From contig CAYHGI010000001.1 of the NCBI GenBank assembly GCA_964356285.1, positions 1 to 60,568 of the forward strand: DNA of 60,568 bases. The letters are read 5' to 3'. The position numbers and the translations under genes are program-made. Below, piece by piece: positions 3,511 to 58,378 of the stretch. The stretch is from an uncultured Candidatus Saccharibacteria bacterium (lineage in GTDB: Bacteria; Patescibacteriota; Minisyncoccia; Phycocordibacterales; UBA9973). Positions within the stretch are counted from its first letter, which is position 1. Each line of letters starts with the position of its first letter. The notes under the pieces were generated by a model. That model was not told the DNA's origin. It did no database searches and saw only the letters and a program-made list of their open reading frames with translations.

Positions 3511-5268
3511 ATGAAAAGTGAAAATAAAATTTGCCAGAATTGTAAAAAAGGTTTCGTGATAGAGCCGGATGATTTTGGTTTTTATGAAAAAATAAAAGTC
3601 CCTCCGCCGACTTGGTGTTGGAAATGTCGAGCGATACGTAGAATGGCTTTCCGGAATATGCGTCATTTTTATATGCGAACTTGCGATGCAACAGGCGCTA
3701 AAATATTTACATTTATTCCACCCGGGAATCCAATGCCAGTATATAGCAATGATTATTGGAACAGCGATAAATGGGACCCCCTTGATTATGGCAGGGAGTA
3801 TGATTTTTCCAGGCCTTTTTTCGATCAAATTCGCGATCTTTATAATGCAGTGCCGTGGGGCATAATGTGGTCAATGGAAATGGTAAATTGCAATTACAGC
3901 GTTTCAGCTTTTTCTAGAAATTGTTATATGTGTTTTGATTCTGGTTATGATGAAGATAGCGCATATAATGTAACCTTGCTTTATAGCAAACAATGTTTTG
4001 ACGCTTTAAATTTAAAAGACTGTGAATTATGTTATTACTGTCTAAATACTAATCAGTCATATAAAACTTATTTTTCTAGAGATTGTACCGCATGTGTAGA
4101 TGTTTGGTTTAGCCAAGATTGTGTAGGGTGTATAAACTGTTTTGGTTGCAGTAGTCTCCGAAATAAAAATTATCATATTTTTAACAAGCCATATGATAAA
4201 GAAACTTATAATATTAAGCTAGCTGAAATGAAACTTGATTCTTGGTCTGGTATTCAACAAGCAAGAAAACTTGCCGAAGGATTATGGCAAAAATCCCCAG
4301 TTAAATTTCAGCACAGTATTCAAGTGACGCATAGTACAGGAGATTATATTTATAATGGCACGGAATTAGTTAACTGTTTTTTTGTTGGAAACGCAAAAAA
4401 TATGAAACATTGTCAGAGTGTGATTTATCCTCCTAATAATGACAGTATAGACATAACTTCTAGTGAAGGAACAGAGCTTGCATACGAAACAAGTTGTTGT
4501 GGAAATGGAATACATAAAACAGTCGGTGTAACTGAATGTGCTGTCGTAAGTGATAGTTTTTACTCAATAAATTGTCGAAATATATCGAATGTTTTCGGGT
4601 GCGTGGCCTTGCGGAGCAAAAATTATTGCATATTAAACAAACAATATAGCAAAGAGGAATATTTTAATTTGCTTCCAAAGATAAAAAAACATATGGATGA
4701 GATGCCTTATATTGACGCAAAGAAACGAGTTTATCGATTTGGAGAATTTTTTCCGGTAGATATAGCTCCTCATGGCTACGGTCAGTCGCAAGCCTCCGAG
4801 TATTTTTCGATTACTGAAGACGAGGCGAAAAAGAAAGGGTATTGTTGGAAAAAGCCAGAAAAAAGAAATTATATTATTACGAAAAAAGCCAGCGAACTTG
4901 AAGATAATATCGATAAAGTATCGGATAAAATTCTTGAAGAAGTAATTCAATGTGAGCACGAAGAAACTAATAGTCATACATTTGGTTGTAATGTTGATTG
5001 TGCAACCGCCTTTCGTATTACCAAACAAGAATTAGATTTCTACCGTCAAGCAAAGTTGCCTCTACCCAGATTTTGTTTTAATTGCAGACATGTTGATAGA
5101 GTTAAGTGGCGTAATTTACCAGAATTACATCATCGACAATGTATGTGTGACAAAGAAAACCATTTTCACGGGGCAGGGAAGTGCAAAGTGGAATTTGAAA
5201 CAAGTTATGCTCCCGACCGTCCGGAAATTGTTTATTGCGAGAAATGTTATCAGCAGGAAGTGTACTAG
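3511..5268 (+). CDS. cysteine-rich protein with N- and C-terminal double zinc-ribbon modules (paralogue 2)
   Basis: 585-aa ORF, tandem to paralogue 1. It has the same MKSE.K.CQNC start and EFETSYAP.RPEIVYCEKCYQQEVY end. Confidence 0.8.
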   Translation: MKSENKICQNCKKGFVIEPDDFGFYEKIKVPPPTWCWKCRAIRRMAFRNMRHFYMRTCDATGAKIFTFIPPGNPMPVYSNDYWNSDKWDPLDYGREYDFSRPFFDQIRDLYNAVPWGIMWSMEMVNCNYSVSAFSRNCYMCFDSGYDEDSAYNVTLLYSKQCFDALNLKDCELCYYCLNTNQSYKTYFSRDCTACVDVWFSQDCVGCINCFGCSSLRNKNYHIFNKPYDKETYNIKLAEMKLDSWSGIQQARKLAEGLWQKSPVKFQHSIQVTHSTGDYIYNGTELVNCFFVGNAKNMKHCQSVIYPPNNDSIDITSSEGTELAYETSCCGNGIHKTVGVTECAVVSDSFYSINCRNISNVFGCVALRSKNYCILNKQYSKEEYFNLLPKIKKHMDEMPYIDAKKRVYRFGEFFPVDIAPHGYGQSQASEYFSITEDEAKKKGYCWKKPEKRNYIITKKASELEDNIDKVSDKILEEVIQCEHEETNSHTFGCNVDCATAFRITKQELDFYRQAKLPLPRFCFNCRHVDRVKWRNLPELHHRQCMCDKENHFHGAGKCKVEFETSYAPDRPEIVYCEKCYQQEVY

Positions 5269-9493: not shown

Positions 9494-9617
9494 ACCCTCC
9501 TAGCCTCCCTTATCAGGGAGGAATAAAATGCAACCCCCTCGTTCCCCCTTATCAGGGGGATGTAAATACGAAGAGAATTTTTTCTCCCCTGATAAGGGGA
9601 GATGTAAGAGGGGTTGA
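9494..9617. repeat. three family-1 palindromic units upstream of the DUF559 gene
   Basis: Perfect hairpins cctccct-tatc-agggagg (9504-9521), tccccct-tatc-aggggga (9543-9560) and tctcccct-gata-aggggaga (9583-9602). The second and third are in opposite orientation, with flanks caaccccctc / gaggggttg. Confidence 0.8.
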
Positions 9618-9636: not shown

Positions 9637-10044
9637 ATGCAAAAGTATAACATTCCTTTTATTCCTTACGAAAAAAATCTAGTTTCTCGAGCAAGAGAAT
9701 TAAGAAAAGAAACCACAGAAGCAGAAAAAATCTTCTGGAATAGAATTTTAAAACATAAAGATTTGCTGAATTTTAAATTTACTAGACAAAAGCCACTTGA
9801 TCATTTTATTGTCGATTTTTATTGTTCAAGTTTAGGACTTGTGATCGAAATAGATGGGATTATTCATGATTTTCAAAAAGTGAGAGATCAAGAAAGGGAC
9901 ACTATTTTGCAGGAAAAATTTGGATTGAAAATAGTAAGATACACAAATGAAGAAGTTATTAATAATACAGAAAAAATTATTCAGGATTTAATAAGAAGAA
10001 CTAAAACCCTCTCCCGACCTCTCCCTTATCAGGGTGAAGGGTAG
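9637..10044 (+). CDS. DUF559 (Vsr-like) endonuclease domain protein
   Basis: 135 aa with the typical LRKETTEAEKIFWNRIL...KFTRQKPLDHFIVDFYC....LVIEIDG..H...RD..RD..L...G..IVRYTNEEV pattern. The C-terminal SRPLPYQGEG is encoded by a family-1 repeat. Confidence 0.8.
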   Translation: MQKYNIPFIPYEKNLVSRARELRKETTEAEKIFWNRILKHKDLLNFKFTRQKPLDHFIVDFYCSSLGLVIEIDGIIHDFQKVRDQERDTILQEKFGLKIVRYTNEEVINNTEKIIQDLIRRTKTLSRPLPYQGEG

Positions 10045-10087
10045 GGTAGTATAAAGTCCCCCTGACAAGGGGGATTTAGGGGGTTGA
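10005..10087. repeat. two family-1 palindromic units at and after the DUF559 3' end
   Basis: ctcccttatcaggg (10021-10034) lies inside the last codons. The perfect hairpin tccccct-gaca-aggggga (10057-10074) is followed by ttagggggttga. Confidence 0.75.
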
Positions 10088-11420: not shown

Positions 11421-12705
11421 AAATACAAGGCAAGACCTTGTATTACAAGGTCTTGCCTTGTATTTAGTTCTTTTATTGATTCCTACCGCTTTTTCTTTTG
11501 CGCAAACTGCGGTTGAGCTTCAAAATAAAATAAATCAAAAAGATTCCGATATCGCTAAACTAGAGGAAGAAATAAAAGCCTATCAAATAGAGCTTGATAA
11601 TATCGGAGAACAAAAAAGCTCTTTAAGCAAATCCATCCGAGAACTTGATTTAACCAGAAAAAAATTGGTAGCTAATATAAATGTGATTCAAACAAAGATT
11701 GATAAAACAAATCTAAAAATAGAAAGCCTGAGTTCAGATATAGGCGATAAAGAGAAGACTATAACAAACAACCTAAAATCGATTAAACTTGGAATTCAAC
11801 AAACTGATGAATTCGAAAGAAGCAGTTTATTGGAAACTCTCTTGTCTCCGAATGATTTTACTGTGATTTGGAATGATATAGACAGTTTAATTACTATCCG
11901 TGAAAAGACTAGAGAAGATGTGGTTAAATTAAAGCAGATAAAAAATGAATTAGAAGACACCAAAAAAGAAACTATTGACGCCAAAAATGAACTCACGGCG
12001 CTTAAGTCCAAGCTTTCGGATCAACAGAAAATAGTGGTGCGGAATACAAATGAAAAAAATCGTCTTTTAAGAGTGACAAAAAATAGCGAGGCCAATTATC
12101 AAAAACTTTTGAAAGATCAATTGACAAAAAAAGAAATCCTGGAAAAAGAATTACGCGATTATGAATCACAGTTGCAATTTATTCTTGATCCATCCAAACT
12201 TCCTTCCGGCGGAGTGTTAAGTTGGCCACTTGATACAATATATGTCACGCAAATGTTTGGAAAAACCGTTGATTCGAAAAGGCTTTATACTTCAGGTAGT
12301 CACAGCGGTACAGATTTTCGGGCCTCGATCGGTACTCCGGTCAAAGCGATGGCTGAAGGAATAGTCTTGGGCGTTGGCAATACCGACGAAACTTGTATCG
12401 GCACTTCATTTGGAAAATGGATATTCATAAAATATAATAATGGTTTGGCGAGCGCATACGGGCATTTATCGCTTATAAAGGTATATGAAGGGCAAAAGGT
12501 AGAAAGGGGCGATATTGTTGGTTATAGTGGCAATACGGGGCATACGACGGGGCCCCATTTGCACGTGTCGGTCTATGTCAGCAGTGCAGCTAGTGTTCAA
12601 AAAAGACCGAGTACGACCTGCGAAGGCAAAGTTTATACCATGCCGTTAGCCCCCATCAATGCTTATCTGAATCCGCTTTATTATTTACCAAAGTTGCCTT
12701 ATTAA
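11386..12705 (+). CDS. secreted coiled-coil M23 peptidase (EnvC-like murein hydrolase/activator)
   Basis: Long coiled-coil region followed by GTDFRASIGTPVKAMAEG ... GNTGHTTGPHLHVSVY (M23 metal site). The start is uncertain because of the hairpin at 11421-11465; an in-frame TTG at 11458 is an alternative. Confidence 0.75.
   Translation: MKPYLDYRKLFKNTRQDLVLQGLALYLVLLLIPTAFSFAQTAVELQNKINQKDSDIAKLEEEIKAYQIELDNIGEQKSSLSKSIRELDLTRKKLVANINVIQTKIDKTNLKIESLSSDIGDKEKTITNNLKSIKLGIQQTDEFERSSLLETLLSPNDFTVIWNDIDSLITIREKTREDVVKLKQIKNELEDTKKETIDAKNELTALKSKLSDQQKIVVRNTNEKNRLLRVTKNSEANYQKLLKDQLTKKEILEKELRDYESQLQFILDPSKLPSGGVLSWPLDTIYVTQMFGKTVDSKRLYTSGSHSGTDFRASIGTPVKAMAEGIVLGVGNTDETCIGTSFGKWIFIKYNNGLASAYGHLSLIKVYEGQKVERGDIVGYSGNTGHTTGPHLHVSVYVSSAASVQKRPSTTCEGKVYTMPLAPINAYLNPLYYLPKLPY
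11421..11465 (+). terminator. 17-bp perfect-stem hairpin directly after the gltX stop
   Basis: aaatacaaggcaagacc (11421-11437) pairs perfectly with ggtcttgccttgtattt (11449-11465), and T-rich sequence follows. The hairpin lies inside the 5' end of the next predicted ORF. Confidence 0.5.
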
Positions 12706-16407: not shown

Positions 16408-16529
16408 AGGTACATTGTATTGCATAAATATAAAAAATGCAAACACCTAATTTAATAAATTCTATTTCGTATTATCTTACGATGTTAAACATATGTAAAA
16501 GATAGTAAGAAAATAAATTGGTATAAAAA

Positions 16530-23136: not shown

Positions 23137-23175
23137 ATATTCTTAACTTTCATGCATATGCTAGAATATTAAGAA
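23137..23175. repeat. left copy of ~35-bp inverted repeat bracketing the PaaX-like gene
   Basis: tcttaactttcatgcatatgctagaatattaag. Its partner is at 23806-23840, sharing the 14-nt core gcatatgctagaat and tcttaa. Confidence 0.65.
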
Positions 23176-23184
23176 AAAGGTTTA

Positions 23185-23802
23185 TTAGGTTAAATTGAAA
23201 TACTTTTTGATTTTTTCATCGCGCAGTATGTTGTCAACAGTCAAAACTTCAACATACTTCACTACCCCAAAGAAATCAGAGATGAAGATAATTTCATCTT
23301 CACATGGATACGGATATATCCAGGCGGACTTCTGGAATTGGAAAAAATCCAGATTTTTTAGGTGATAACGCAGCGCCTCTCTTCCTTTTGTAAATCTCAT
23401 AGGTATATCAAACATCGCTAATCTCCATTTCCCATCCCATCTCTTCGGTATTTTAATCTTCATTAACTCAATGTCGAATTCTCTAAGTCTAACTTCTCCC
23501 CTTTTAGTGACTTTAACTATTGCTTTACCATTTTTGTCTCTAACATATTCGATGAGTTTTTGGCGCTTCAAGCTATCGATAGCATTCTGGATCTGCCTTT
23601 TGGAATACCTTTTAGAACCTTCAAACATACCAAAGCATTGCACAGCATTGCCTATAACAGCGGCACCAAGCACAAGAACGGGAAGCGAAGCTAGTGCAAC
23701 GACGCATAGAGCAACAGTAGCAATCTTTGCTTCTTTGGTGTCAGAATTCAAAAAATTTCTTAATCTCTCTGTATAGTTGTCTTTATTTTTTAGTATTTCC
23801 AT
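23185..23802 (-). CDS. PaaX-family/Cas2-like-domain regulator with N-terminal TM helix
   Basis: The hydrophobic segment AKIATVALCVVALASLPVLVLGAAVIG is followed by a winged-helix-like part. After that comes KRWDGKWRLAMFDIPMRFTKGREALRYHLKNLDFFQFQKSAWIYP, typical of the PaaX C-terminal region. Confidence 0.6.
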   Translation of the reverse strand: MEILKNKDNYTERLRNFLNSDTKEAKIATVALCVVALASLPVLVLGAAVIGNAVQCFGMFEGSKRYSKRQIQNAIDSLKRQKLIEYVRDKNGKAIVKVTKRGEVRLREFDIELMKIKIPKRWDGKWRLAMFDIPMRFTKGREALRYHLKNLDFFQFQKSAWIYPYPCEDEIIFISDFFGVVKYVEVLTVDNILRDEKIKKYFNLT

Positions 23803-23805
23803 ACT

Positions 23806-23840
23806 CTTATAATTCTAGCATATGCAAGATTCTTAAGATA
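23806..23840. repeat. right copy of the inverted repeat bracketing the PaaX-like gene
   Basis: The reverse complement tatcttaagaatcttgcatatgctagaattataag aligns with 23137-23175. Confidence 0.65.
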
Positions 23841-30091: not shown

Positions 30092-31450
30092 TTAGAGCGC
30101 GTTTTTTCCTATATCTTTTCGATATTGCATCCCTTCAAAAGATATTTTTTTTATAGCTTTATAGGCTTTTTCTAGCGCTTCTTTGAGGGAATTTCCTGTG
30201 GCAGAAACTCCAAGCACTCGCCCGCCGTTAGTCGTTAGGTCTTGCCTCACAACTTTTGTGCCGGCGTGGAAGATGATTACATCACCTCCCCCTCCCCCCT
30301 CCAACCCTTCCCGACTTCCCCTTATCAGGGGAGGCAAATTGGTTCCCCCTGATAAGAGGGATGCAGGGGGTTTAAGGAGGGGAGGAACTCCCGTAATCAT
30401 TTTCCCTTTTTTATAATTTCCCGGATATCCGCCCGAAGCAAGAACGATATTGCAAACAGACTTATTACTCCATTTTATTTCTGTTTGGTCTAGCTTTTGA
30501 TCAATAGAGTTTTCAATAATTTCTAAAAGATCAGTTTCAAGAAGTCTCATATATGTTTGAGTTTCAGGGTCGCCAAAACGTGCATTGTATTCTAGTATTT
30601 TTGGTCCCTCTTTGGTGAGCATAAGTCCTGGATATAGCACTCCCATAAAAGGTTTTCCATCTTTTTTCATACCCTCCAATGTCGGGGCAACAATTTCTTT
30701 TTCTATTTTTTGCATGAGTTCTTTAGTTACAAATGGCAACGGTGCAATTGTGCCCATGCCGCCTGTATTTGGGCCAGTATCCCCTTCACCAATTTTCTTA
30801 TGATCTTGCGATGGCGGGAACATTTTGTAACTCTTTCCATCAGAAAATGCATGTATTGAGATTTCCGGACCTGTTAAAAACTCTTCGATGACTACTTTAT
30901 TTCCTGACTCACCGAAAACTTTCTTTATCATTATTTCTTCAAGAGTTTCTATTGCTTTTTCTTTAGTCTCACATATAACTGCTCCTTTACCACCTGCGAG
31001 CCCGCTTGCTTTGATCACTATCGGTAGAGTTTGTTTCGTCAGATACTCTTTTGCTTTTTCAAAATCGTTGAATATTTCAAATTTTGCTGTAGGTAAATTA
31101 TGCCGGCGCATGAAATCTTTAGAAAAAGCTTTTGACCATTCTAGCTGTGCCGCCGCTTTTTTCGGGCCCCAGATGCGCAAGTTTGCCTTCTGAAACTCGT
31201 CTACGACACCCAAAGCAAGCGGATCATCGGAAAGAGCCAGCGTTAGGTTAATTTTTTCTTTTTGCGCGAACTCTATAAGCTTAGAAATTTCTGTCTCTTC
31301 GATATCTAAGTTGGTTCCCAGTCGTGCCGTTCCAGCATTACCTCTAGCAAAAAATAATTCTCTCGCTCGTGGTGATTGCGCAATTTTCCATCCGACAGCA
31401 TGCTCTCTTCCTCCTCCTGCTCCAATTATTAAAATTTTTAATTTTGACAT
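30092..31450 (-). CDS. purD: phosphoribosylamine--glycine ligase, carrying an in-frame repeat insertion
   Basis: KILIIGAGGREHA, ATP-grasp core, FHAGTK...TNGGRVLGV. The start is set at MSKLKIL. Confidence 0.9.
   Translation of the reverse strand: MSKLKILIIGAGGGREHAVGWKIAQSPRARELFFARGNAGTARLGTNLDIEETEISKLIEFAQKEKINLTLALSDDPLALGVVDEFQKANLRIWGPKKAAAQLEWSKAFSKDFMRRHNLPTAKFEIFNDFEKAKEYLTKQTLPIVIKASGLAGGKGAVICETKEKAIETLEEIMIKKVFGESGNKVVIEEFLTGPEISIHAFSDGKSYKMFPPSQDHKKIGEGDTGPNTGGMGTIAPLPFVTKELMQKIEKEIVAPTLEGMKKDGKPFMGVLYPGLMLTKEGPKILEYNARFGDPETQTYMRLLETDLLEIIENSIDQKLDQTEIKWSNKSVCNIVLASGGYPGNYKKGKMITGVPPLLKPPASLLSGGTNLPPLIRGSREGLEGGGGGDVIIFHAGTKVVRQDLTTNGGRVLGVSATGNSLKEALEKAYKAIKKISFEGMQYRKDIGKNAL
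30284..30388. repeat. ~105-bp composite family-1 palindromic element inserted in frame in purD
   Basis: Head-to-head units tcccct-tatc-agggga (30317-30332) and tccccct-gata-agaggga (30344-30361). The outer arms cctcccccctccaaccc / gggtttaaggaggggagg are inverted. The element is translated as PPLLKPPASLLSGGTNLPPLIRGSREGLEGGGGG. Confidence 0.8.
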
Positions 31451-33784: not shown

Positions 33785-34558
33785 TTATTTCTTGAAATAA
33801 TTAACAGCATTTTTTAAAATCTTCAGGCCCTTACCCCATTTTTCCATTTTCTCTTTTACTTGCCTGCCCCGTAGGAAGCTTGCTTTCCTTCGGGGCCATA
33901 AAGGGCTTTGGTGCGAGAACATCGCTCGCTCCGGATGCGGCATCATTCCCAGAACTCTCCCATTATAAGCTAAAACTCCAGCAATGTCATAATCCGATCC
34001 GTTTGGGTTGGGTTCTAAGTTTTGAAATTTACAAATCGGACCTTTCACGTATTTGAAGGCTACTGTCCCTTTTTGCTTAGGGTCTACAACATAATGTCCT
34101 TCGCCGTGGGCGATTGGTAGAGATATTTTTTTAATGTTTTTAAGCCATGGACTATTATTTTTTTCGATTTGTAAATCTACCCACCTATCTATATATCTGC
34201 CATTTTTATTTTGCGCTAGAGCGCCGGGCAAGATTCCGAGGTTTGTCATAATCTGAAATCCGTTACAAATCCCTATAGCCAGAGTGTCGCGAGACAAAAA
34301 TTCTTCAAGCTCTTTTGCTAAATGATTTTTAAATTTGTTAGCATACGCCTTGCCGGATCCGGTATCATCTCCATAAGAAAATCCTCCCGGAAAAACGAGG
34401 ATCTGATATTTTGAGAGTATTTTAGGTTCGGCGATCAGATCATTGATGTGCACTATGTCAGCCATGCCTCCCGCAGAGTCAAAAGCGAATTTCGTCTCCT
34501 CTTCGCAATTGAGTCCGTAGCCAGACATTATTATTATTTTTGGATTTTTATTTTTCAT
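33785..34558 (-). CDS. purQ: FGAM synthase glutaminase subunit
   Basis: GICNGFQ (nucleophile Cys) and MPHPER motifs. The start at MKNKNPKIIIMSG shares one base with the upstream stop (TAATG). Confidence 0.85.
   Translation of the reverse strand: MKNKNPKIIIMSGYGLNCEEETKFAFDSAGGMADIVHINDLIAEPKILSKYQILVFPGGFSYGDDTGSGKAYANKFKNHLAKELEEFLSRDTLAIGICNGFQIMTNLGILPGALAQNKNGRYIDRWVDLQIEKNNSPWLKNIKKISLPIAHGEGHYVVDPKQKGTVAFKYVKGPICKFQNLEPNPNGSDYDIAGVLAYNGRVLGMMPHPERAMFSHQSPLWPRRKASFLRGRQVKEKMEKWGKGLKILKNAVNYFKK
33862..33895. repeat. family-2 34-nt palindromic element inside purQ
   Basis: gcctgccccgtaggaagcttgctttccttcgggg, translated as [11 protein letters not shown]. Confidence 0.75.
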
Positions 34559-36267
34559 TAATATATCTCCTGCTGATAACATTTTTCGCAGTATACTATT
34601 TCCGACCTATCCGGTGCATAACTTGTTTTGAATGCCACTTCGCACTTATCTTGTCCATGAAAGTGGCTATTTTTGTCGCACATGCAGACTCTATCCCAAA
34701 GTTTTAGGGGATTTCTTTGACCTATTCTCTCGTAATGCCTGCAATTCGGGCACAATCGTGGCAAAGGCAGGCTCATTCTTTTATAGAATTTAAATTCTTC
34801 CGGAATAATCTTGAACGCTTCCGTGCACTGATGCTTGCATGCGCCGCCATGATTACAAGCAATTACTTTGCCTACTATATCATCTTCTATATCCTTAATA
34901 TTATCCGGGATATTTTTGGTTTCTATGTCAATTTTGTAATTTCTTTTTTCTTCATCTTGCCAGGTATAGTTTTTTGCGAGAGCTTCTTTTTTGGTTAGAG
35001 GAAAATATTCTTGGGCGATGGTTTCATTGTAAGCAAATGGAGATAACTCTTTTGGGAAAAATTCTCCGTATTCGCCTGTTGTTTTCATGTGCTCGATTAT
35101 TTTGGGCACAAGCGCCTCGTATTCTTCTTTGGTGTATTGTTTGTTTAATATACAATAGGATTTTTTACGAAGTCCCTCACATCCAAATATATTTGCACAG
35201 TTGTGACATTCTTCACTGTAGTATGTATTCTGGTTCATTAGATTTCTTATACTAAACGCTGTGTTTGATCCGGCGAAGCCGTGAGCCACTTCATAAAGAA
35301 GTTCGGCATTAAAGCCTTGGAAAGAAGTATCGTAACAATTTTTCGTTCCCCTTCTACAGAAGAACAAGTATTTCGAGTTTTCTGTCTGTCCGGAAGTAAA
35401 AGATATCTGGGTGTTTCTGGCTTCAGAAAGATCATCCCCGCTGGAATTCACGGATTTGTAAATACGAGCGTATCTGTGAGGCACATTTAATTTTAATTTT
35501 TGTAGCCTTTCTAAATTTTTTAAATGCTTAGTGTAACTTCCCTGATTTTCTTTTGTAAACTCTTTGTATGTTTCTTTAGTGACAGGCTGATTAAATATAT
35601 GATATTTTTTATTTACCAATCCGACGCAACCGAAACATTTTGTACAATTTCTACAATCAATTAAGTAGTAACTCTCCACGCAGTCTTTTGAGTAAGAGCT
35701 GAAAAAGACTTTATTAAATGATTTAGATTCGAAAATTTCATAACTGAACTCAATTTTCGAGGAAAAAGCTATATCCAAAGAATCGCGAGATTCGACGACC
35801 TGATTGCCGAAGTAAATTCTCTCATTGTTCATTCCCCCAAATAGCAAATAACATTCCTTAAAATCCAGACCATAGTTACAATAATCGCTCAAGATAAAAT
35901 TGTCGCGGTAAAGATTTACTCTGGGGACTGCTTCCATGAGAACTTTGAACTGATCAAAGAAAGGTTTAGAAAAATCGTAATCCTTACCGTAATCTATCGG
36001 ATTCCATTTATCGGAGAGCCAGCAATCGCGGCAATAAATAGTGTAGGGGCGACTTTTGTGATATATGGTGAGAACTGGCTCGTGGCATAAGACGCATTCT
36101 CTTTTGTAAAGAACTCTGTTGTTTCTAAAAAGCAATCTTCTCTGAAACCTGCATTCTGGGCAAAAAGTCGGCGACGGCACCTTCATCTTCTCATAAAATC
36201 CAAAATCATCCGACTCAATGACGAATTCTTTTTGGCAGTTTTGGCAATTTTTTGTTTCAGTTTTCAT
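34558..36267 (-). CDS. cysteine-rich protein with N- and C-terminal double zinc-ribbon modules (paralogue 3)
   Basis: 569 aa. It starts MKTETKNCQNCQKEFVIESDDFGFYEKMKVPSPTFCPECR and ends FKTSYAPDRSEIVYCEKCYQQEIY. It lies between purL and purQ. Confidence 0.8.
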   Translation of the reverse strand: MKTETKNCQNCQKEFVIESDDFGFYEKMKVPSPTFCPECRFQRRLLFRNNRVLYKRECVLCHEPVLTIYHKSRPYTIYCRDCWLSDKWNPIDYGKDYDFSKPFFDQFKVLMEAVPRVNLYRDNFILSDYCNYGLDFKECYLLFGGMNNERIYFGNQVVESRDSLDIAFSSKIEFSYEIFESKSFNKVFFSSYSKDCVESYYLIDCRNCTKCFGCVGLVNKKYHIFNQPVTKETYKEFTKENQGSYTKHLKNLERLQKLKLNVPHRYARIYKSVNSSGDDLSEARNTQISFTSGQTENSKYLFFCRRGTKNCYDTSFQGFNAELLYEVAHGFAGSNTAFSIRNLMNQNTYYSEECHNCANIFGCEGLRKKSYCILNKQYTKEEYEALVPKIIEHMKTTGEYGEFFPKELSPFAYNETIAQEYFPLTKKEALAKNYTWQDEEKRNYKIDIETKNIPDNIKDIEDDIVGKVIACNHGGACKHQCTEAFKIIPEEFKFYKRMSLPLPRLCPNCRHYERIGQRNPLKLWDRVCMCDKNSHFHGQDKCEVAFKTSYAPDRSEIVYCEKCYQQEIY

Positions 36268-36317: not shown

Positions 36318-39233
36318 CTATTGTTGTGAATTTGAAAACTTATGATAAATGCTGTGCAGTTTTTTGACATTGGTGTCTATAATTTTTTTCCTGCTTTCGA
36401 TTATAACTACTTTACTATTATTTCCAACTTTCCCAATCTTAGCATAAGTAATTTTTTGCATTAATTTTTCAAATAGCTTGGCATTTTTAGGAGAAACAGA
36501 TACCAAAATCCTGCCCTGTGATTCAGAAAAAAGCCTTGTTTCTATGGATAAAACGGAAGCAAGGCTTCCGTTTTTTTGTGCCATTATCTGGTCTAGAGAA
36601 ACATTGTAGCCGAGCATGCCGCCTATACAGGCTTTGGCGAGAGCTATTCCTAGGCCTCCTGAAGTTATGGAAAGAGAAGAAGTCACAAGCTCTTTGTTAA
36701 TAGCTTGCTCGAGCGTCTGATAAGTTTTTAGATTCTTTTCAAGGTTAACTTTTGGAACAATTTCATCATGAGTTTCACCCAATAAATAAATTACGTCGCC
36801 ACTATTTTTAAATTCAGGTGAAACTGTTTTATATAGATCTGGCATGACGCTTATGCCAGAGATAAGGAGTGTCGGTGGAATAGAAATAGCCACTGGATTC
36901 CCCTTCTCATCAAATCCTTTGAAATCGTTGAACATGCTGTCCTTACCGGAGATAAAAGGCGTGCCGTAGGCTACGGCGCAGTCGTAGCACGCTTTTACGG
37001 CCTCTTTGAGCTGGTAGAGCCTTTTTGGATCATTCGATGAGCACCAACAGAAATTATCAAGTAGGGCGAGATGATTTAAGGTACCACCAGCGGATATAAT
37101 ATTTCGAACTGCCGTATCTATAGCGCAGGCCGCCATCTGATAGATATCTATGTCTCCATATGAAGGATAAACTCCGTAAGAAAGCACCACCCCTTTATCT
37201 GAATTCAACACTGGCTTAATGACTTGGGCGTCAGTATTTATTCTTCCAGGACCGGACAAAGGTTTAAGTACAGAAGAAGCTTGAACTTCATGATCATATT
37301 GTTCAGAGATAAAAGAATATCCGGAAATGTTTTTGTCACGAAGGAGGTTTTCGAGAATTTTATTCACCTCTCCTGGCTTTTCAGCCACCCTCTCCTTGAC
37401 AAGGAGAGGGGCTGGGGGTGAGGTTTTTAGTTGTTCCTTCGGCAATCCGTTATGCAAAAAATTCATCTCCAAATCCATTATTTTCTTTCTCTTGTGATCC
37501 ACAACTACTCTTCCTGAATTTATAAATTCCCCTATTGTCGTCGCTTCTACTCCTCGACTCTTCATTAATTTTTGAAATTTTTTCCATTTATTTTTTGGTA
37601 CCGATAAAGTCATGCGTTCTTGCGACTCTGAAATCCATATTTCCCACGGTTTGAGTCCCGGATATTTTAGCGGAACTTTATCTAAATAAATTTTTACACC
37701 ATTACACTCCTTTGCCATTTCGGCGACAGAAGACGAGAGGCCCCCTGCGCCATTGTCCGTAATACTATTGTATAATCCTTGACCCCGAGCTTCTTTTATT
37801 ATGGCATCGCTCAATTTCTTTTGAGTTATCGGGTCCCCTATTTGTACCGCAGTCGCTGGCGAATGTGAATCTATATTTTCCGAAGAAAATGTCGCTCCGT
37901 GGATGCCGTCAAGTCCAATTCTTCCCCCTACCATTACCACATAATCTCCGGGCTGCGCCTTCTTTTCGTGCATAAGTCTGCCTTTTACCTTCCTTGGAAT
38001 AAGACCGACTGTGCCTGCGAAAACCATCGGCTTGGCGCGATAGCGATTGTCAAATCTGATAAATCCTGAAATAGTAGGAATTCCGGAACAATTTCCGCCG
38101 ACGTTTATACCCTTGATTACTCCCTCCATTATTCTTTTTGGAGGAAGCATTGGTTGAGTTGAATTTCTATCTCTAAAGAATTTTCTTTTATCATCCAGGT
38201 TACTAAAACAAAATCCGTATGTATTGGCGACAGGTTTTGCTCCCAATCCGAACCCTATAGCATCTCGATTGACTCCTCCTATACCAGTAACCGCTCCTCC
38301 ATAAGGATCCAGAGCTGAAGGACTGTTGTGAGTCTCCACCTTATGAGTAATTAAATAATTTTTATTAAAAATTATTCCGCCGGCATTGTCTGAAAATACT
38401 GAAATGCAAAAATCCCCGCCTTTGGACGGGGCAAGCTTCCCTCTTTCTTGTTTTTGTTTTCTGATTAAATTCGTCGCGCCCTTTATGTAAGTTTTATATA
38501 AACCGTCTCTAATATCATCTATTGAATTCGCGAAAATAGTGTGCTTGCAATGCTCCGACCATGTCTGGGCAAGTGATTCCAGCTCTATATCCGTCGGATC
38601 TCTTTTTAGCTTGGCGAAATAAGCTTGTATTGCCTTCATGTATAACAGAGAAAGAGCCAACGGGCCGCGACGACGCCCTGTCTCATCCATAATTCCCTCC
38701 TTGCCTATTTTTGTGAGTTCTTCATCAGAGACATCAAGGGATACATTCAAGACTGAAGCGCCTTTCTTTAAAATTACTTCCGGAACTTTATTTGGAAATT
38801 TTACTTTTCCATCTTTGAGTTTCAAAATATTTACTCTCTCTATGAGCGGGTTATATAAAGTTTGAGCTATGGTTTTAACCTCATTATCTGTGCGGGAACC
38901 AGAAATAAAAAAAATTTTAGATGTATATACTTTTATATCTAAATCTTTTTTAAGATGAAGTAAGTCTTTAGCTATTTCTTCAACTGTATGGCCTACATTA
39001 TCTGTCACTCCCGGCAAGAAACCAATCTCGATGGCATATGTAAAAGATGTCGGACGTCGAGATTCCAGACGTCCGACGTCAAGGGATTCATTGATCGAAT
39101 AGTTTTCTAGAATTGGATTAGTAATAGCCTCCGCTAACTTCGTGAGTTCTTTTTTTGATAATTTAGAGTCAATAAGGTAAGAATCTGCTCTTGTACTTCC
39201 CTTTTTCGGCATCACATATATCCGCGAAATCAT
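36318..39233 (-). CDS. purL: FGAM synthase large subunit with N-terminal extension (possible fused PurS-like domain)
   Basis: 971 aa with WSEHCKHTIF, duplicated PurM-like halves and GKDSMFN. About 170 aa precede the usual PurL start. Confidence 0.9.
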   Translation of the reverse strand: MISRIYVMPKKGSTRADSYLIDSKLSKKELTKLAEAITNPILENYSINESLDVGRLESRRPTSFTYAIEIGFLPGVTDNVGHTVEEIAKDLLHLKKDLDIKVYTSKIFFISGSRTDNEVKTIAQTLYNPLIERVNILKLKDGKVKFPNKVPEVILKKGASVLNVSLDVSDEELTKIGKEGIMDETGRRRGPLALSLLYMKAIQAYFAKLKRDPTDIELESLAQTWSEHCKHTIFANSIDDIRDGLYKTYIKGATNLIRKQKQERGKLAPSKGGDFCISVFSDNAGGIIFNKNYLITHKVETHNSPSALDPYGGAVTGIGGVNRDAIGFGLGAKPVANTYGFCFSNLDDKRKFFRDRNSTQPMLPPKRIMEGVIKGINVGGNCSGIPTISGFIRFDNRYRAKPMVFAGTVGLIPRKVKGRLMHEKKAQPGDYVVMVGGRIGLDGIHGATFSSENIDSHSPATAVQIGDPITQKKLSDAIIKEARGQGLYNSITDNGAGGLSSSVAEMAKECNGVKIYLDKVPLKYPGLKPWEIWISESQERMTLSVPKNKWKKFQKLMKSRGVEATTIGEFINSGRVVVDHKRKKIMDLEMNFLHNGLPKEQLKTSPPAPLLVKERVAEKPGEVNKILENLLRDKNISGYSFISEQYDHEVQASSVLKPLSGPGRINTDAQVIKPVLNSDKGVVLSYGVYPSYGDIDIYQMAACAIDTAVRNIISAGGTLNHLALLDNFCWCSSNDPKRLYQLKEAVKACYDCAVAYGTPFISGKDSMFNDFKGFDEKGNPVAISIPPTLLISGISVMPDLYKTVSPEFKNSGDVIYLLGETHDEIVPKVNLEKNLKTYQTLEQAINKELVTSSLSITSGGLGIALAKACIGGMLGYNVSLDQIMAQKNGSLASVLSIETRLFSESQGRILVSVSPKNAKLFEKLMQKITYAKIGKVGNNSKVVIIESRKKIIDTNVKKLHSIYHKFSNSQQ
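37388..37410. repeat. family-1-like hairpin inside purL
   Basis: ccctctcct-tgaca-aggagaggg flanked by cagccac / gctgggggtgagg; translated as PPAPLLVKERVAE. Confidence 0.65.
39046..39080. repeat. family-3 (GACGTC-core) palindromic element inside purL
   Basis: gtcggacgtc-gagattcca-gacgtccgac; translated as DVGRLESRRPTS. Confidence 0.7.
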
Positions 39234-47183: not shown

Positions 47184-49532
47184 TTACAATTTCTTTGCCT
47201 TGATTCTTAAAGAGTTCGAAACTACCGATACTGAAGACATCGCCATGGCAAATCCGGCAAAGATCGGTGAAAGAAGCCAGCCAAAGATCGGATAAAATAA
47301 TCCAGTTGCCAGCGGAATACCCACTATATTATATATGAAAGCCCAAAAAAGATTCTGCTTAATGCCCCGCATTGTCATTTTTGAAAGTTTTATCGCTTTC
47401 ACCAATTTTGAAATATCTCCGTGTAAAAGCGTAATTCCGGCGGATTCGATGGCAACATCGGTGCCGGTCGCCATGGCGATGCCCACGTCCGCTTGCGCCA
47501 AGGCCGGCGCGTCGTTGACTCCATCTCCCGCCATCGCCACGATACGCCCTTCTATTTGCAGTTCTTTTATTTTATTTAGTTTATCTTCCGGCATTACTTC
47601 GGCAATCACTTCATCAATGCCGACTAATTTTGCAATATACTCAGCCGTATTTTTATTGTCCCCTGTCAGCATAACCATTTTAATGCCAAGCTTGTGAAGA
47701 TTTCTGACCGCTTCAATCGCTTCGGGTTTAATGGCATCAGCGATCATAACGATGCCGAATACTGCATTTTTATCTGCAAGGATAACTGGAGTTTTGCCTT
47801 CTAGGGTTTCTTTTTGGAGCACCGCTTTATCAAATTTTAAATTAAGATCTTTTATAAGTTTAATATTGCCGGCGAAATATTCTTTTCCATCAATTGTTCC
47901 TTTCAACCCTTGACCTTTGATTATCGCGAAATCTTGCGCCTCGGTAATTTGTATTTTATTTTGTTTAGCATATTCGATAACCGCATGAGCAATCGGGTGT
48001 TCTGATTTATTTTCTAATGTTGCCAGTATTGAAATAAAGTCCTCGTCATTTTTTTGCGAGTAATTTTTAATGCTGACAAGTTCTGGTTTGCCTTTCGTTA
48101 TTGTTCCCGTCTTGTCAGCCACTATTATATTCACCTTGTGCAGTTTCTCAAGCGTGGCCGCGTCTTTAATCAAAATGCCTTCTTTCGCCCCCTTGCCCAC
48201 ACCTACGATAATCGCGGTCGGCGTCGCGAGTCCTAAAGCGCATGGACAAGCAATAACAAGGACGCCTACAAATGACACAAGTCCAAAGGAAAGCGCTTGG
48301 GAAAAACCGAGGTATGACGTTCCGACAATAAGCCAGAGCGCTAAGGAAACAATAGATATGTCTAAAACAATAGGCACAAAAACACTCGAAATTTTATCAG
48401 CTAAAGCCTGAATGGGCGCCTTACTACTTTGCGCTTCTTCCACCATTTTGATTATATGGGCAAGCAATGTTTCCGAGCCGACTTTTGTAGCTTTGAATGT
48501 GAATGACCCGCTGGTGTTTATTGTAGCGGCAATCACGTTGTCCCCTACTTTTTTTTGAGTCGGCATAGGCTCGCCGGTCACCATCGATTCATCTACAAAA
48601 GAAGAACCTTCCGTGATTAATCCATCGACAGGAATCTTCGCCCCCGGTTTTACAATCACAAAATCTCCATGTTTGACATCGTTGACTGAAATTTCTATTT
48701 CTTTTCCGCCTGCCCCGTAGGAAGCTGGCTTTCCTTCGGGGTCTCGGATGACCAAGGCAGTCTTAGCTTGGAGATTTAAAAGTTTTTCGATAGCATCGCC
48801 GGTTTTTAATTTTGATTTAGCTTCCAAATATTTGCCAAGCGCGATAAAAGTGATAACAATTATTGTGATATCATAATAAGTGGCTTCCACATTTATAAAC
48901 GACCGAAGTGGTTCTTCGAGCGCGGTAATCGCGAAGCTGTATAAATAAGCGGCTACGGTGCCGATGCCGATAAGTGTATCCATATTCGCTTTACCGTAAC
49001 GAAGAAAACGAAAAAAACCCAAAAGATACGGTTTGCCCACCACGAACAAAACATACGTAGCCATTAGGGGCAGAAGATGATGAAAAAATTCTTTGGCCGT
49101 ATAGCTCATTGCGGACACAACATTGTATTGCGCTAAAATGTCCCAACTTAAAATAAGAGAACTGATTATGGCAAGCGGAATGGCCGAAATTACTTTGATT
49201 TTCATATCTCTTATCTCAACCAGCTTTTCAGTTTTTGACTGGCCGAGCCCCAGATGCGCTTTATGTTCATCCTCGGTCATGTCCATCCCGCTTGCGCTGA
49301 GCATAGTCGAAGTGTTTGCCGCAGGTATGATAAGCGAATAACCAAGCGGTTCAATTTTTTTGGAAAGAGATTCTGGATTAATCTTTGTTTCATCAAAATT
49401 TATTTTTACCGATTCATTCCCGTAATTTGCTTCCACGGTATTAACTCCATCGATTTTTTTGAAAGTTCTCTCAATTATCCCCGTGCAAGAAGCGCAGTGC
49501 ATTCCTTTTATTTTATAAGTTTTATTTTGCAT
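47184..49532 (-). CDS. copA: copper-translocating P1B-type ATPase
   Basis: N-terminal HMA domain GMHCASCTG, the CPC motif ([11 protein letters not shown]), DKTGTIT and GDGVNDAP. Confidence 0.95.
48708..48741. repeat. family-2 34-nt palindromic element inside copA
   Basis: gcctgccccgtaggaagctggctttccttcgggg; translated as [11 protein letters not shown] between VIRD and GKEIEI. Confidence 0.8.
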
Positions 49533-49582: not shown

Positions 49583-49653
49583 CTGGGGGACTTGGATTCG
49601 AACCAAAATTAAGGGCTTCAAAGGCCCCGGTCCTACCATTAGACGATCCCCCA
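49583..49653 (-). tRNA. tRNA-Gln (anticodon UUG)
   Basis: Hand fold of the minus strand: acceptor TGGGGGA/TCCCCCA, D arm GTCT..GGAC, anticodon stem GGGGC/GCCCT with loop CTTTGAA, and T arm TTTGG-TTCGAAT-CCAAG. No CCA is encoded. Confidence 0.85.
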
Positions 49654-50738: not shown

Positions 50739-50819
50739 AGACTTGATTATATCAATAAAAGAAATGAAAAAGCCAGTTTGTCTACTATCTTTTACATATG
50801 TTTGAGATAGTAGACATTT

Positions 50820-56071: not shown

Positions 56072-58378
56072 ATGAAATTATTAATTGTTGAATCACCGTC
56101 AAAAGCCAAGACTATCGAAAAATATTTGGAAGGCGCTTTTACTGTGCGCGCGTCCGTCGGACATGTGCGTGATTTACCTAAATCAAACAAAACGGCGATA
56201 GACATCGAAGGTGGTTTTATTCCGCATTATGAAATTTCTAAAGGTAAAGAAAAAATTGTCCGTGAATTGCAGGGATTAGCGGAAAAAGCCAGTCAGGTGG
56301 TATTAGCGACCGACCCCGACCGTGAAGGAGAAGCCATCGCTTGGCACATAGAGACACTTCTGAAGCAGGACCTCGAAGGAAAGAGTACTTCCTACGGGGC
56401 AGGCAAAAAAGTAAAAGCCCCAATAAGCAGAATAGTTTTCCACGAGATAACCAAAGAGGCAATTTTAGAAGCGTTAAAACACCCTCGAAAAATAGATACC
56501 CATCTCCGTCAGGCTCAAGAAGCCCGCAGGGTTCTAGACCGTTTGGTCGGCTATGATCTTTCTGGGCTTATTTGGAAAAAAGTGCGATACGGGCTTTCAG
56601 CTGGTCGAGTTCAATCCCCCGCGCTGCGCATTATTATGGAACGGGAACGCGAAATTCGCGCTTTTATTCCGGAAAAATTTTGGAGAATTTTTGGTTTATT
56701 TCAAACTACGAAAAGGGAAAAAATAACCTTGGAGTGTTCTGAAGAAATAAGAGACCTGCCCGCCCTCCCGGGTGGTCGGGAGCAGGCGGGTGAAAAATTG
56801 GTGGAGAAAATTATGGAAGCGGGTAGAAACGGCACATGGATCGTAAATGACATTAAGGAATCAGAACAAAAACGTTCACCTCGCGCGCCTTTTACCACTT
56901 CTACCTTGCAACAGACGGCGAGTTCTCGTCTTGGTTACTCTCCTTCGCGCACGATGCAAATAGCGCAACGGCTTTACGAAACTGGATATATCACATATAT
57001 GCGAACAGACAGTACTAATTTGTCCATAATTGCGCAAGAGCAAATTATTAATTTTGTTAAAAATAAATACGGTGAAGAATATGCGCAAGCCAGAATTTAT
57101 AAAACTAAATCAAAGAACGCTCAAGAAGCGCATGAAGCGATTCGTCCTACTCATATAGACAAGCTTATCGCCGGTAGCGGAGAGGGAGAAAAACTTTATA
57201 GATTAATTTGGGAACGCGCCGTATCTTCCCAAATGGCTGATGCGGAACTTTTGAAAACAAAAATTTCCGCTGTAATTGAAACAACTTCGGACGTTGGACG
57301 TCCAAATGACGGACGTCCAACGTCCGATCTGCCGGATTTTTCAGCTAATGGCTCTCGCCTTCTCTTCCCTGGATGGCTTGCGGTAGATACTGATGCTCGA
57401 GGTGATGATGTAGAACTGCCGGTGTGTAAAGAGGGCGAAGAATTGAAATTGCTTGATTTAATAAAAGAAGAAAAATTTACCGAACCACCAAGCAGATATA
57501 GCGAGGCAGGACTCATTAAAGAACTCGAAAATCGAGGTATTGGACGGCCTTCGACTTATGCTTCCATCATGAGAACTATTGAAGAAAGGGGCTATGTCAA
57601 CAAAGAAGGAAAAACGCTTTTTCCTACAGACGTCGGTGAAGTGGTATCGGACTTTTTGGAAAATAATTTTCCCAATTACATTTCCGATACTTTTACCGCG
57701 GAGATGGAAGACGAACTGGACGAAATTTCACGAGGCGAGCGCGAATATGAGAAAACACTGAAAGATTTTTATATACCATTTTCTAAAGATGTAAAGTCAA
57801 AAGATAAATTAGAAAAAGTCACAAACTTAGGCAATGCTCCAAAAAATATAAAATGCCCAAAATGCAACAGTGAAATGATCATCAAACTTTCTCGTGGAGG
57901 CAAATTCTATTCTTGCTCAAAGTATCCGAATTGTGACGGAGCTCTTATGATGAACGGTACAGAGTTAAAAGGCCCGAAAGAAACTGGAGAAATGTGTCCG
58001 GAATGCGGGAAGAAGTCTGGCGGAAAACTTGTTGTCCGCGAACGACGCGACGGCACCGGCACATTCATCTCCTGCTCGCGTTATCCAAAATGCAAATTTA
58101 TTAAGAGCGATGAAGTAGAAGAGGCTAAAAAGAGAACAGGTATAGTTTGTCCTTTGTGCGAGAAAGGAGATATTTCCGAGCGACGCGGAAAGTTTGGAAT
58201 TTTCTATTCTTGCTCCAATTACCCAAATTGTAAATTTGCCATAAAAGCAAAACCGACTGGCAGAAAATGCGAAAAATGCGGCAGTTTGATGATGGAAGGC
58301 ACAAAAACAATTCCAGAACGTTGCAGTAATAATAAATGTCCAAATTACCGACCAGATAAATTAAATAAAATGTTATAA
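56072..58378 (+). CDS. topA: DNA topoisomerase I with C-terminal zinc ribbons, carrying three in-frame palindromic inserts
   Basis: TOPRIM domain MKLLIVESPSKAKTIEKYL, active-site region YITYMRTDS, and four CxxC...CxxC fingers at the C-terminus. Confidence 0.95.
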   Translation: MKLLIVESPSKAKTIEKYLEGAFTVRASVGHVRDLPKSNKTAIDIEGGFIPHYEISKGKEKIVRELQGLAEKASQVVLATDPDREGEAIAWHIETLLKQDLEGKSTSYGAGKKVKAPISRIVFHEITKEAILEALKHPRKIDTHLRQAQEARRVLDRLVGYDLSGLIWKKVRYGLSAGRVQSPALRIIMEREREIRAFIPEKFWRIFGLFQTTKREKITLECSEEIRDLPALPGGREQAGEKLVEKIMEAGRNGTWIVNDIKESEQKRSPRAPFTTSTLQQTASSRLGYSPSRTMQIAQRLYETGYITYMRTDSTNLSIIAQEQIINFVKNKYGEEYAQARIYKTKSKNAQEAHEAIRPTHIDKLIAGSGEGEKLYRLIWERAVSSQMADAELLKTKISAVIETTSDVGRPNDGRPTSDLPDFSANGSRLLFPGWLAVDTDARGDDVELPVCKEGEELKLLDLIKEEKFTEPPSRYSEAGLIKELENRGIGRPSTYASIMRTIEERGYVNKEGKTLFPTDVGEVVSDFLENNFPNYISDTFTAEMEDELDEISRGEREYEKTLKDFYIPFSKDVKSKDKLEKVTNLGNAPKNIKCPKCNSEMIIKLSRGGKFYSCSKYPNCDGALMMNGTELKGPKETGEMCPECGKKSGGKLVVRERRDGTGTFISCSRYPKCKFIKSDEVEEAKKRTGIVCPLCEKGDISERRGKFGIFYSCSNYPNCKFAIKAKPTGRKCEKCGSLMMEGTKTIPERCSNNKCPNYRPDKLNKML
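56371..56404. repeat. family-2 palindromic element inside topA
   Basis: cctcgaaggaaagagtacttcctacggggcaggc; translated as LEGKSTSYGAG. Confidence 0.75.
56755..56791. repeat. GC-rich hairpin element inside topA
   Basis: cccgcc-ctcccg-ggtggt-cgggag-ca-ggcggg; translated as LPALPGGREQAG. Confidence 0.6.
57287..57327. repeat. family-3 (GACGTC-core) palindromic element inside topA
   Basis: Perfect 17-bp arms tcggacgttggacgtcc / ggacgtccaacgtccga around aaatgac; translated as SDVGRPNDGRPTSD. Confidence 0.8.

Follow-up and report, generated by a model that had tools for sequence, protein, structure and literature searches.

The window analysed here, the whole 60,568-nucleotide stretch of contig CAYHGI010000001.1 from an uncultured, ultra-small Candidatus Saccharibacteria bacterium of groundwater, carries near-identical GC-rich palindromes inside its copA, purQ and topA genes. 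All three, we conclude, are probably copies of one small mobile DNA element, non-autonomous and hairpin-forming, which occurs widely in bacteria of the candidate phyla radiation (CPR, or Patescibacteria) of the Paceibacteria (Parcubacteria) type. The element is a discrete unit of 33 or 36 nt with seamless junctions and a structurally covarying hairpin; its presence or absence is polymorphic at exact codons, its frame and orientation within genes are filtered, and its old copies decay. [quoted passage not shown]

A search of the window located GCCTGCCCCGTAGGAAGCTGGCTTTCCTTCGGGG at 48708-48741, inside copA. A copy with a single loop difference lies in purQ (33862-33895), and another, as the reverse complement, in topA (56371-56404), where the 4-nt loop is different and one base of the outer stem has changed (CGAGG). 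A preliminary description of this DNA, which had the copies differing essentially in the loop only, was therefore right for purQ and missed the stem change in topA. It had also described the copA element as a 34-nt palindrome with a 12-bp stem and one mismatch. The palindrome and its in-frame position stand, but comparison of filled and empty orthologues (those with and without the element) gives an inserted unit of 33 nt, CCTGC-CCCGTAGGAAG-loop-CTTTCCTTCGGGG, the 34th base being part of a host codon, and the stem consists instead of 5 bp, a T.T (A.A) mismatch and then 5-6 bp with a one-base bulge. In full, a 4-nt 5' tail, CCTG, precedes a 29-nt imperfect hairpin with outer stem CCCCG/CGGGG, the T.T mismatch, a bulged T in the inner stem and a variable loop; a longer-loop subtype measures 36 nt. 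The element has a G+C content of about 65% against 39% for the window. RNA free energies of the window copies range from -12 to -15 kcal/mol, with z-scores of -1.4 to -2.2; single-sequence z-scores are modest throughout, about -1 to -3. Rfam, at gathering thresholds, gave no match at the element, which rules out a known RNA family, and only a tRNA at 49583-49653.

The modest z-scores are the one observation that would suit a chance palindrome or an assembly artefact. Against this, none of 100 dinucleotide-preserving shuffles contained a matching sequence, independent Hainich groundwater assemblies (0.1 and 0.2 µm filter fractions) yielded three contigs that encode the identical CopA protein, and the element occurs in metagenome-assembled genomes (MAGs) from many unrelated studies. 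Chance or artefact can be dismissed almost entirely.

All three host open reading frames (ORFs) continue through the element, in agreement with the earlier claim of three intragenic copies that keep the frame, and the orientation relative to the host gene is the same each time. The copA gene (47184..49532, minus strand) encodes a Cu+ P-type ATPase of 782 aa (Pfam HMA, E1-E2_ATPase and Hydrolase; CopA in the PDB, E=1e-168); its hairpin, at 48709..48741 on the minus strand, has the loop variant CCAG and reads CCCCGAAGGAAAGCCAGCTTCCTACGGGGCAGG on the host strand, 11 residues. In topA (56072..58378, plus strand; DNA topoisomerase I, 768 aa; Pfam Toprim, Topoisom_bac and Zn_ribbon_Top1), the hairpin at 56371..56403 on the plus strand has the loop AGTA and CCTC for CCCC in the outer stem, and the same element frame as in CopA gives KQD-LEGKSTSYGAG-KKVK. 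The purQ gene (33785..34582, minus strand) encodes the 265-aa glutaminase subunit of formylglycinamidine ribonucleotide (FGAM) synthase (Pfam GATase_5, 3.6e-68; PDB 3D54, PurQ) and reads its hairpin (33863..33895, minus strand, loop CAAG) shifted by one base, in the +1 frame relative to CopA and TopA. The CopA insert forms the turn between two beta-strands of the A-domain; in an AlphaFold2 (AF2) model of only moderate quality (mean predicted local distance difference test, pLDDT, 71), residues 264-274 are low-confidence coil between strands 258-263 and 277-282. The TopA insert lies in a Toprim-domain loop preceding the RVVF strand, and the PurQ insert in the C-terminal tail after HPERA, outside the region alignable to solved PurQ structures. 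The nearest homologues of all three proteins come from Paceibacterota, Nomurabacteria and other Patescibacteria MAGs.

Orthologues with and without the element define its boundaries to the base. Among 120 CopA orthologues of about 75% identity, 109 lack the insert at the exact codon and read VIR-D-GKE, and Archaeoglobus fulgidus CopA (3J09) shows an exact 11-residue gap opposite it, which bears out the proposal that 11 residues are extra in CopA. Ten orthologues have an insert at the same codon, seven of them as intact 11-mers or 12-mers and two in decayed form (PDGKPSSVGAG and PDGKPLAFNGAG). At the DNA level, about 45 further metagenomic CopA genes are all empty (CGN GAY GGN AAR GAA), and filled genes read CGN GAC CCC GAA GGA AAG CCA GCT TCC TAC GGG GCA GGY GGN AAR; the additional 33 nt (CCCC...GCAGG) split the Asp codon between GA and Y, and no base is duplicated. 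Another insertion point in CopA lies three codons downstream (orthologue P0009 and census loci L050 and L119; RDGK-DPEGK...GAG-IEI), and a third site is occupied in L010 and L118.

TopA gives the same picture. About 108 of 120 orthologues are empty at the codon (LLKQD-KKVKAP), and the DNA of an empty locus, L212, reads CAA GAC AAA AAA GTA where the filled loci L211 and L213 read CAA GAC CCC GAA...GCA RGT AAA AAA GTA. No target-site duplication was found at the copA and topA junctions (empty GAY GGA / GAC AAA versus filled GA(33 nt)Y GGA / AAA). The scatter of filled TopA alleles is seen within a conserved gene neighbourhood, holB-dus-x-serS-dprA-topA-relA-parB, and this single codon has several kinds of occupant: the TACT type, the CTTG type, the subfamilies PERPRQGGANGAG and PARKLSALNGAG, and a truncated remnant. 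Several other orthologous census sites are likewise occupied by differing loop types. The nearest relative is empty for 8 of 10 filled CopA and for 10 of 10 filled TopA proteins (for example, P0123 is filled and P0122, at 91% identity, is empty). Because filled alleles are scattered and one codon holds different occupants, the data indicate that a few permissive or preferred sites were entered repeatedly and independently, possibly with precise loss. TopA proteins with the insert between D and KK (P0121, P0140, P0180, P0209, P0203 and P0239) mostly have ISRIVF or RVRF in the next strand, and empty ones ERVTF or ARVAF, a difference that could be a compensatory change or a shared recombination tract.

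In PurQ (n=121), 77 orthologues are empty, 22 have the +1-frame peptide at the same site in states from intact to decayed, and 22 have other inserts; filled and empty proteins differ in length by 11 residues. The PurQ copies form a graded series of decay from the 12-residue peptide through to CQKKASSIQGKHK, and since they decay, old copies are unprotected. Presence/absence polymorphism at the exact codon, which the preliminary description had proposed to look for, is thus found in orthologues of all three genes.

To learn how far the element extends, we scanned species-representative genomes with CCCGTAGGAA-N3-9-TTTCCTTCG and obtained at least 119 stretches, counting as true copies those in the full flanking context YRC...RR. 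True copies number at least about 104, from at least about 95 genomes, almost all of them CPR/Patescibacteria MAGs labelled Nomurabacteria, Paceibacterota, Nealsonbacteria, Wolfebacteria, Giovannonibacteria, Azambacteria, Minisyncoccia, Parcubacteria or generically Patescibacteria/'Saccharibacteria'. Among the matches listed, to which the counts of loop, location, orientation and frame given below also refer, about ten (from Firmicutes, Bacteroidetes, Proteobacteria and others) are without the flanking context and look like chance matches. Across the 103 non-redundant copies listed, information content is sharply lower outside CCTGC...GGGG, the same bounds as those of the unit derived from filled/empty pairs. 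The main loop types are CTTG (22), CCGAAGG (17, forming the 36-nt unit) and TACT (16); variants with a 5-nt loop are mostly intergenic. ORFs of at least 150 codons contain 72 copies and about 30 are intergenic; in about 70% of cases a long ORF runs through the copy. The host proteins include RuvB, PNPase, PcrA/UvrD, UvrC, UvrA, LigA, Tgt, class II ribonucleotide reductase (RNR), SecA, arginyl-tRNA synthetase (ArgRS), CopA and TopA. A phage-borne element is ruled out by the absence of any match to it among 2.9 million viral contigs. The preliminary description had allowed that its mobile-element reading would be weakened if the CopA segment were conserved in unrelated taxa or if the element were confined to its three sites. 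The segment is absent from unrelated taxa and from about 90% of CPR orthologues at 75% identity, and the element recurs in many genes and in intergenic DNA, which leaves mobility as the best-supported reading.

Near-identical 29-33-mers common to at least about 95 species could also suggest a DNA-uptake or recombination signal, like the uptake signal sequences (USS) and DNA uptake sequences (DUS) of Pasteurellaceae and Neisseriaceae, enriched as CPR cells scavenge DNA by competence. Uptake signals do occur in genes in preferred frames, and dprA adjoins topA in the window. However, USS and DUS occur about once per kb and accumulate by point substitution, whereas the 60 kb of the window contain 3 copies and several hundred kb of other DNA close to 0-1, in the form of clean, discrete 33-nt indels that are not products of point mutation, and subfamilies covary to preserve structure rather than sequence. 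We consider an uptake signal highly improbable.

Because single-sequence z-scores are only modest, the evidence for structure rests on covariation. Sister subfamilies keep the tail and outer stem (CCTG-CCCCG-T-A ... T-T-CGGGG), and their inner stems differ yet stay complementary, as in GGAAG/CTTTCC, CCAAG/CTTTGG, CGAAG/CTTTCG, GGGAG/TTCTCC, GGGTCGC/GCGACTCC and GTTATGC/GCATATAC. The terminal pair of the stem switches from C-G to T-A among subfamilies. In 57 distinct sequences, 92.6% of cells are paired and 7 of 13 pairs show compensatory double changes; the covariation score of 0.206, against 0.090 in shuffles, was reached by none of 500 shuffles, and shifting the 3' partners abolished the signal. 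The folding filter removed only 3 of the 60 sequences that match the outer motif, so the signal is not a product of the selection. Wobble pairs number 16 against 11 between the strands, with no asymmetry. On this symmetry a strand-specific RNA structure was rejected; the pairing is compatible with a DNA as well as an RNA hairpin. At L005 (540-651) and L047 (1753-1873, tgt), two hairpin subfamilies stand about 50 nt apart in inverted orientation in one gene of two species, an arrangement like that of bacterial interspersed mosaic elements (BIMEs).

Within genes, orientation and frame are strongly biased. Among the matches listed, 67 of the 72 copies in long ORFs are oriented as in the window (p=3e-10; stop-free frames alone would give 3/5). 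These 67 are read as (D/N/Y/H)-PEGK-x-x-SYGAG in 51 cases (p=9e-13), as PKESKLPTGQA in 10 and in the remaining frame, which gives a 12-residue peptide, in 6; the TAG-containing frame is never used. Since frame, length class and stop codons all matter, we infer that the copies are translated and not removed from the mRNA, and splicing is ruled out on the same grounds. The single clear target preference is for an A as the last sense-strand base ahead of the element, which 33 of 38 copies with 4-nt loops have, versus 4 of 17 of the CCGAAGG type. The loop was rejected as a target guide: loop type has no association with the flanks except for that adjacent base, and one topA codon accepts several loop types. 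In the window GC skew follows gene strand, so that replication strand is inseparable from transcription strand.

On this basis we propose how such an element might spread. It integrates seamlessly, without target-site duplication, and the entry point of the 4-nt-loop subtypes is mostly just 3' of a sense-strand A of the host, as in Asp codons split into GA and Y. Mobilisation would occur in trans, by an enzyme that recognises the shape of the hairpin. Single-strand HUH/Y1 (single-tyrosine) chemistry inserts and excises without a footprint, and because seamless junctions, an imperfect hairpin and a short asymmetric tail fit such chemistry, a single-strand-DNA HUH/Y1 transposase of the IS200/IS605-TnpA or REP-associated tyrosine transposase (RAYT) kind is the likeliest candidate; our confidence in this class is low because no such gene was found. 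In compact CPR genomes many insertions would fall in genes, and the survivors would be those whose length is a multiple of 3 nt, which are free of stops, and whose orientation and frame give a hydrophilic, Gly/Pro-rich PEGKxxSYGAG peptide at a turn on the protein surface or at a protein end. The window's examples would be the copies in the CopA A-domain beta-hairpin, the TopA Toprim loop and the PurQ C-terminal tail. Copies would be translated rather than spliced out, and permissive sites would be hit again, as in copA and topA; old copies decay, as in purQ.

Several observations weigh against this reading. No transposase was seen among the window ORFs scanned. Two loci, L025 and L095, have an ORF between inverted copies, and in neither did reading of the translations, with no family search run, reveal a transposase; as autonomous parents they were rejected on those translations, L025 encoding what reads as a subunit like that of transketolase, and L095 a hypothetical protein that itself contains an in-frame copy. 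With Escherichia coli RayT as query, phmmer, a search of low sensitivity here, gave no match among 6144 ORFs drawn from loci totalling 2.1 Mb (genome fragments) and from the window, and no full-length autonomous parent was seen in about 2 Mb of these loci. Density is uneven, with 3 copies in the 60-kb window versus 1 extra copy in the approximately 1 Mb around other copA genes, about half of which comes from distant non-CPR relatives. Beyond the one adjacent base, target sequence preference is slight and does not account for the recurrent codon use. Intergenic copies that lie between co-directional genes favour the genic orientation too, though less strongly (11:5 among the matches listed), and for this reason peptide selection may not be the sole cause of the orientation bias. 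Finally, the five 33-nt CopA copies, from scattered lineages, all have the loop CTGG, absent from the rest of the 103 census copies, and only 2 of their 11 codons vary at synonymous positions compared with 51 of 59 in the flanks (p=1.6e-5; pairwise difference 9% versus 55%). For the shared loop and the near-invariance at synonymous positions, simple random insertion, repeated each time, is a poorer fit than one origin with constraint at the nucleotide level or than allele transfer. The cause could be constraint on one old insertion, a CopA-specific source copy or allele transfer.

On a rival reading, the hairpin would be a host-beneficial module maintained by selection, either a DNA or RNA structure (acting in mRNA stability, translational pausing or antisense termination) or a peptide loop recognised by a CPR factor, which entered each gene once in ancient times and was later precisely lost in many lineages. 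The near-invariant CopA copies amid divergent flanks, the one rare loop that they share, the conserved and covarying hairpin architecture, the sense-strand lean even of intergenic copies and the common downstream ISRIVF/RVRF of filled TopA alleles would all suit such a benefit. On the other side, about 90% of close orthologues of these essential genes are without the element, PurQ copies decay freely, the use of three frames and both orientations implies no single required peptide, and differing subfamilies occur at the same codon. The wobbles moreover show no one-strand excess of the G.U type, as an RNA structure would give, and Rfam had no match. Host benefit is in our judgement distinctly unlikely.

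Alternatively, filled alleles could have spread mainly by homologous recombination between CPR lineages, a few ancient insertions being carried along with host DNA. Such transfer is plausible for copA because the gene occurs in csoR-copA cassettes, duplicated in one genome beside a serine recombinase: at L204 (9734-18844), two tandem csoR-copA-(HMA/DsbD_2)-cupredoxin cassettes adjoin serine recombinase and ParB-methyltransferase genes, and copper-resistance cassettes look horizontally mobile among CPR genomes. The CopA-specific CTGG loop in scattered lineages and the downstream motif common to filled TopA alleles would also agree with it. However, synonymous flank differences reach the junctions, with no visible conversion tract in copA, unrelated host genes number in the dozens and intergenic copies occur besides, and loop types and subfamilies differ among the occupants of the one topA codon. 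Allele transfer as the main route is very unlikely.

The preferred reading, a selfish mobile element, also has a more active variant, in which a CPR-specific, site-selective and footprint-free system repeatedly places a 33-nt cassette at the same codon of essential genes, topA and copA among them, and can precisely remove it. Synonymous invariance would then reflect its role as substrate or a use by the host, and the element would be a writer of loops and not a passive relic. We regard this variant as rather unlikely.

In the literature searched we found no description of such elements in CPR bacteria, and among known systems the closest parallel appears to be with RPEs, of which the element behaves like an undescribed miniature relative. 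RPEs are described as in-frame, peptide-encoding palindromic repeats of approximately 100-150 bp in Rickettsia housekeeping genes (Ogata et al., 2000, via PMC10969869). The likeness is that of a palindromic repeat in a reduced genome, in frame in unrelated housekeeping genes, with a stereotyped peptide at a tolerated surface position, occurring also between genes and with no known transposase. At least 72 copies of our element lie in ORFs of at least 150 codons, with the conserved peptide PEGKxxSYGAG. RPEs are set apart by size and host: the element has 33-36 nt and 11-12 residues and belongs to MAGs of many CPR lineages, while RPEs of about 100-150 bp are given for Rickettsia only. The element differs also in its recurrent identical codons and in its clean filled/empty junctions without duplication.

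In form the element recalls the REP/BIME and RAYT systems, as an imperfect palindrome of 20-40 nt with conserved irregularities, an asymmetric short 5' extension and many dispersed copies. A GTAG tetranucleotide is present as well, although inside the stem and not at its foot as in SMAG-type GTAG repeats and REPs, and the adjacent inverted pairs at L005 and L047 add to the likeness. REPs are extragenic by definition and REP families are usually species-specific, whereas about 70% of the element's copies (among the matches listed) are intragenic and translated, and its sequence is common to at least about 95 species. REP systems typically have a RAYT gene flanked by REPs; for the element, phmmer, a weak test, gave no RAYT match.

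Members of the IS200/IS605 group, which move by single-strand 'peel and paste' transposition, and the palindrome-associated elements derived from them (PATEs) share with it hairpin recognition, the absence of target-site duplication, footprint-free presence/absence and a short preferred base context. Its seamless junctions and a hairpin conserved by covariation support a similar way of working, not membership. IS200/IS605-type elements have two different subterminal hairpins, a target of 4-5 nt 3' of which they insert, and a strand bias relative to replication, whereas ours has a single hairpin and about one preferred flanking base, and no TnpA or TnpB was identified.

MITEs such as Correia, ERIC and Coxiella QMITE1 are AT-rich elements of 100-500 bp with terminal inverted repeats and target-site duplications, mostly intergenic (PMC10969869, PMC5896051). 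The element resembles them in being non-autonomous, structured, multi-copy and at times fused in frame to ORFs, and differs in having 33 nt, in being GC-rich in an AT-rich genome and mostly intragenic, and in making no target duplication. A further mark of MITEs is descent from an identifiable autonomous IS whose terminal inverted repeats match theirs. Short palindromes also form the GC clusters of organelles, for example in Volvox (PMC2670323). These too are GC-rich hairpins of small size that spread through a compact, AT-rich genome and at times lie in frame in coding sequence, but they are organellar and eukaryotic and unrelated in sequence. Yeast mitochondrial var1 is a further example of such clusters or short palindromes. 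We know of no report of a comparable frame stereotype or cross-species identity for organelle GC clusters.

If this reading is right, in-frame palindromic selfish DNA in essential genes, so far mainly a matter of Rickettsia, would be general in a huge uncultivated radiation, and in an extreme miniature form (33 nt, 11 residues). It would give a concrete account of many short lineage-specific insertions in CPR protein alignments and a caution for gene callers, phylogenomic pipelines and structure predictors. The insertions would also provide natural presence/absence markers for strain tracking in groundwater metagenomes. Filled/empty pairs, covarying hairpins and recurrent codons together offer a route to a new hairpin-specific recombinase and to the tolerance of proteins for random loop insertions.

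The window contains further repeats. Within topA, a second GC-rich palindrome, CCTGCCCGCCCTCCCGGGTGGTCGGGAGCAGGCGGG at 56750-56795, is in frame as (RD)LPALPGGREQAG and opens with CCTGCCC like the element studied here; this site is occupied in only 3 of 120 TopA orthologues (P0121, and in shorter form P0206 and P0137). A third palindrome family, built on GTCGGACGTC, is found at 57287-57327 in topA and at 39046-39080 in purL (ORF 36318-39233). In topA this palindrome, translated as TSDVGRPNDGRPTSDL, pairs perfectly over a 17-bp stem, and the TopA loop at this point is hypervariable, with inserts of many kinds in about 39 of 120 orthologues. Other palindromes, short and rich in G+C, belong to the CCCCCTTATCAGGGGG / CCCTCTCCTTGACAAGGAGAGGG type and occur at 1693-1725, 9529-9561, 10007-10037, 10054-10077 and 30305-30372, and at 37388-37410 in purL. 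This genome and CPR proteins such as PcrA (L080) and Tgt (L047) appear riddled with several families of insert.

Three paralogous ORFs (1743-3470, 3511-5268 and 34558-36267, the last between purL and purQ) encode proteins of 569-585 aa with 70-80% nucleotide identity over parts and no Pfam match. Inverted repeats of 34 nt, 82% complementary, at 23141-23174 and 23805-23838 flank an ORF of 205 aa (23185-23802), an arrangement that may represent a small cassette, either mobile or regulated. A 30-nt AT-rich sequence, TACGATGTTAAACATATGTAAAAGATAGTA, is found twice in intergenic DNA, at 16478-16507 and 50783-50812, in inverted orientation, 34 kb apart and with 90% identity. At 11421-11465, where the ORF that ends at 11420 has just closed, 21 bp pair perfectly around a 3-nt loop; this hairpin is probably a terminator or another type of repeat.

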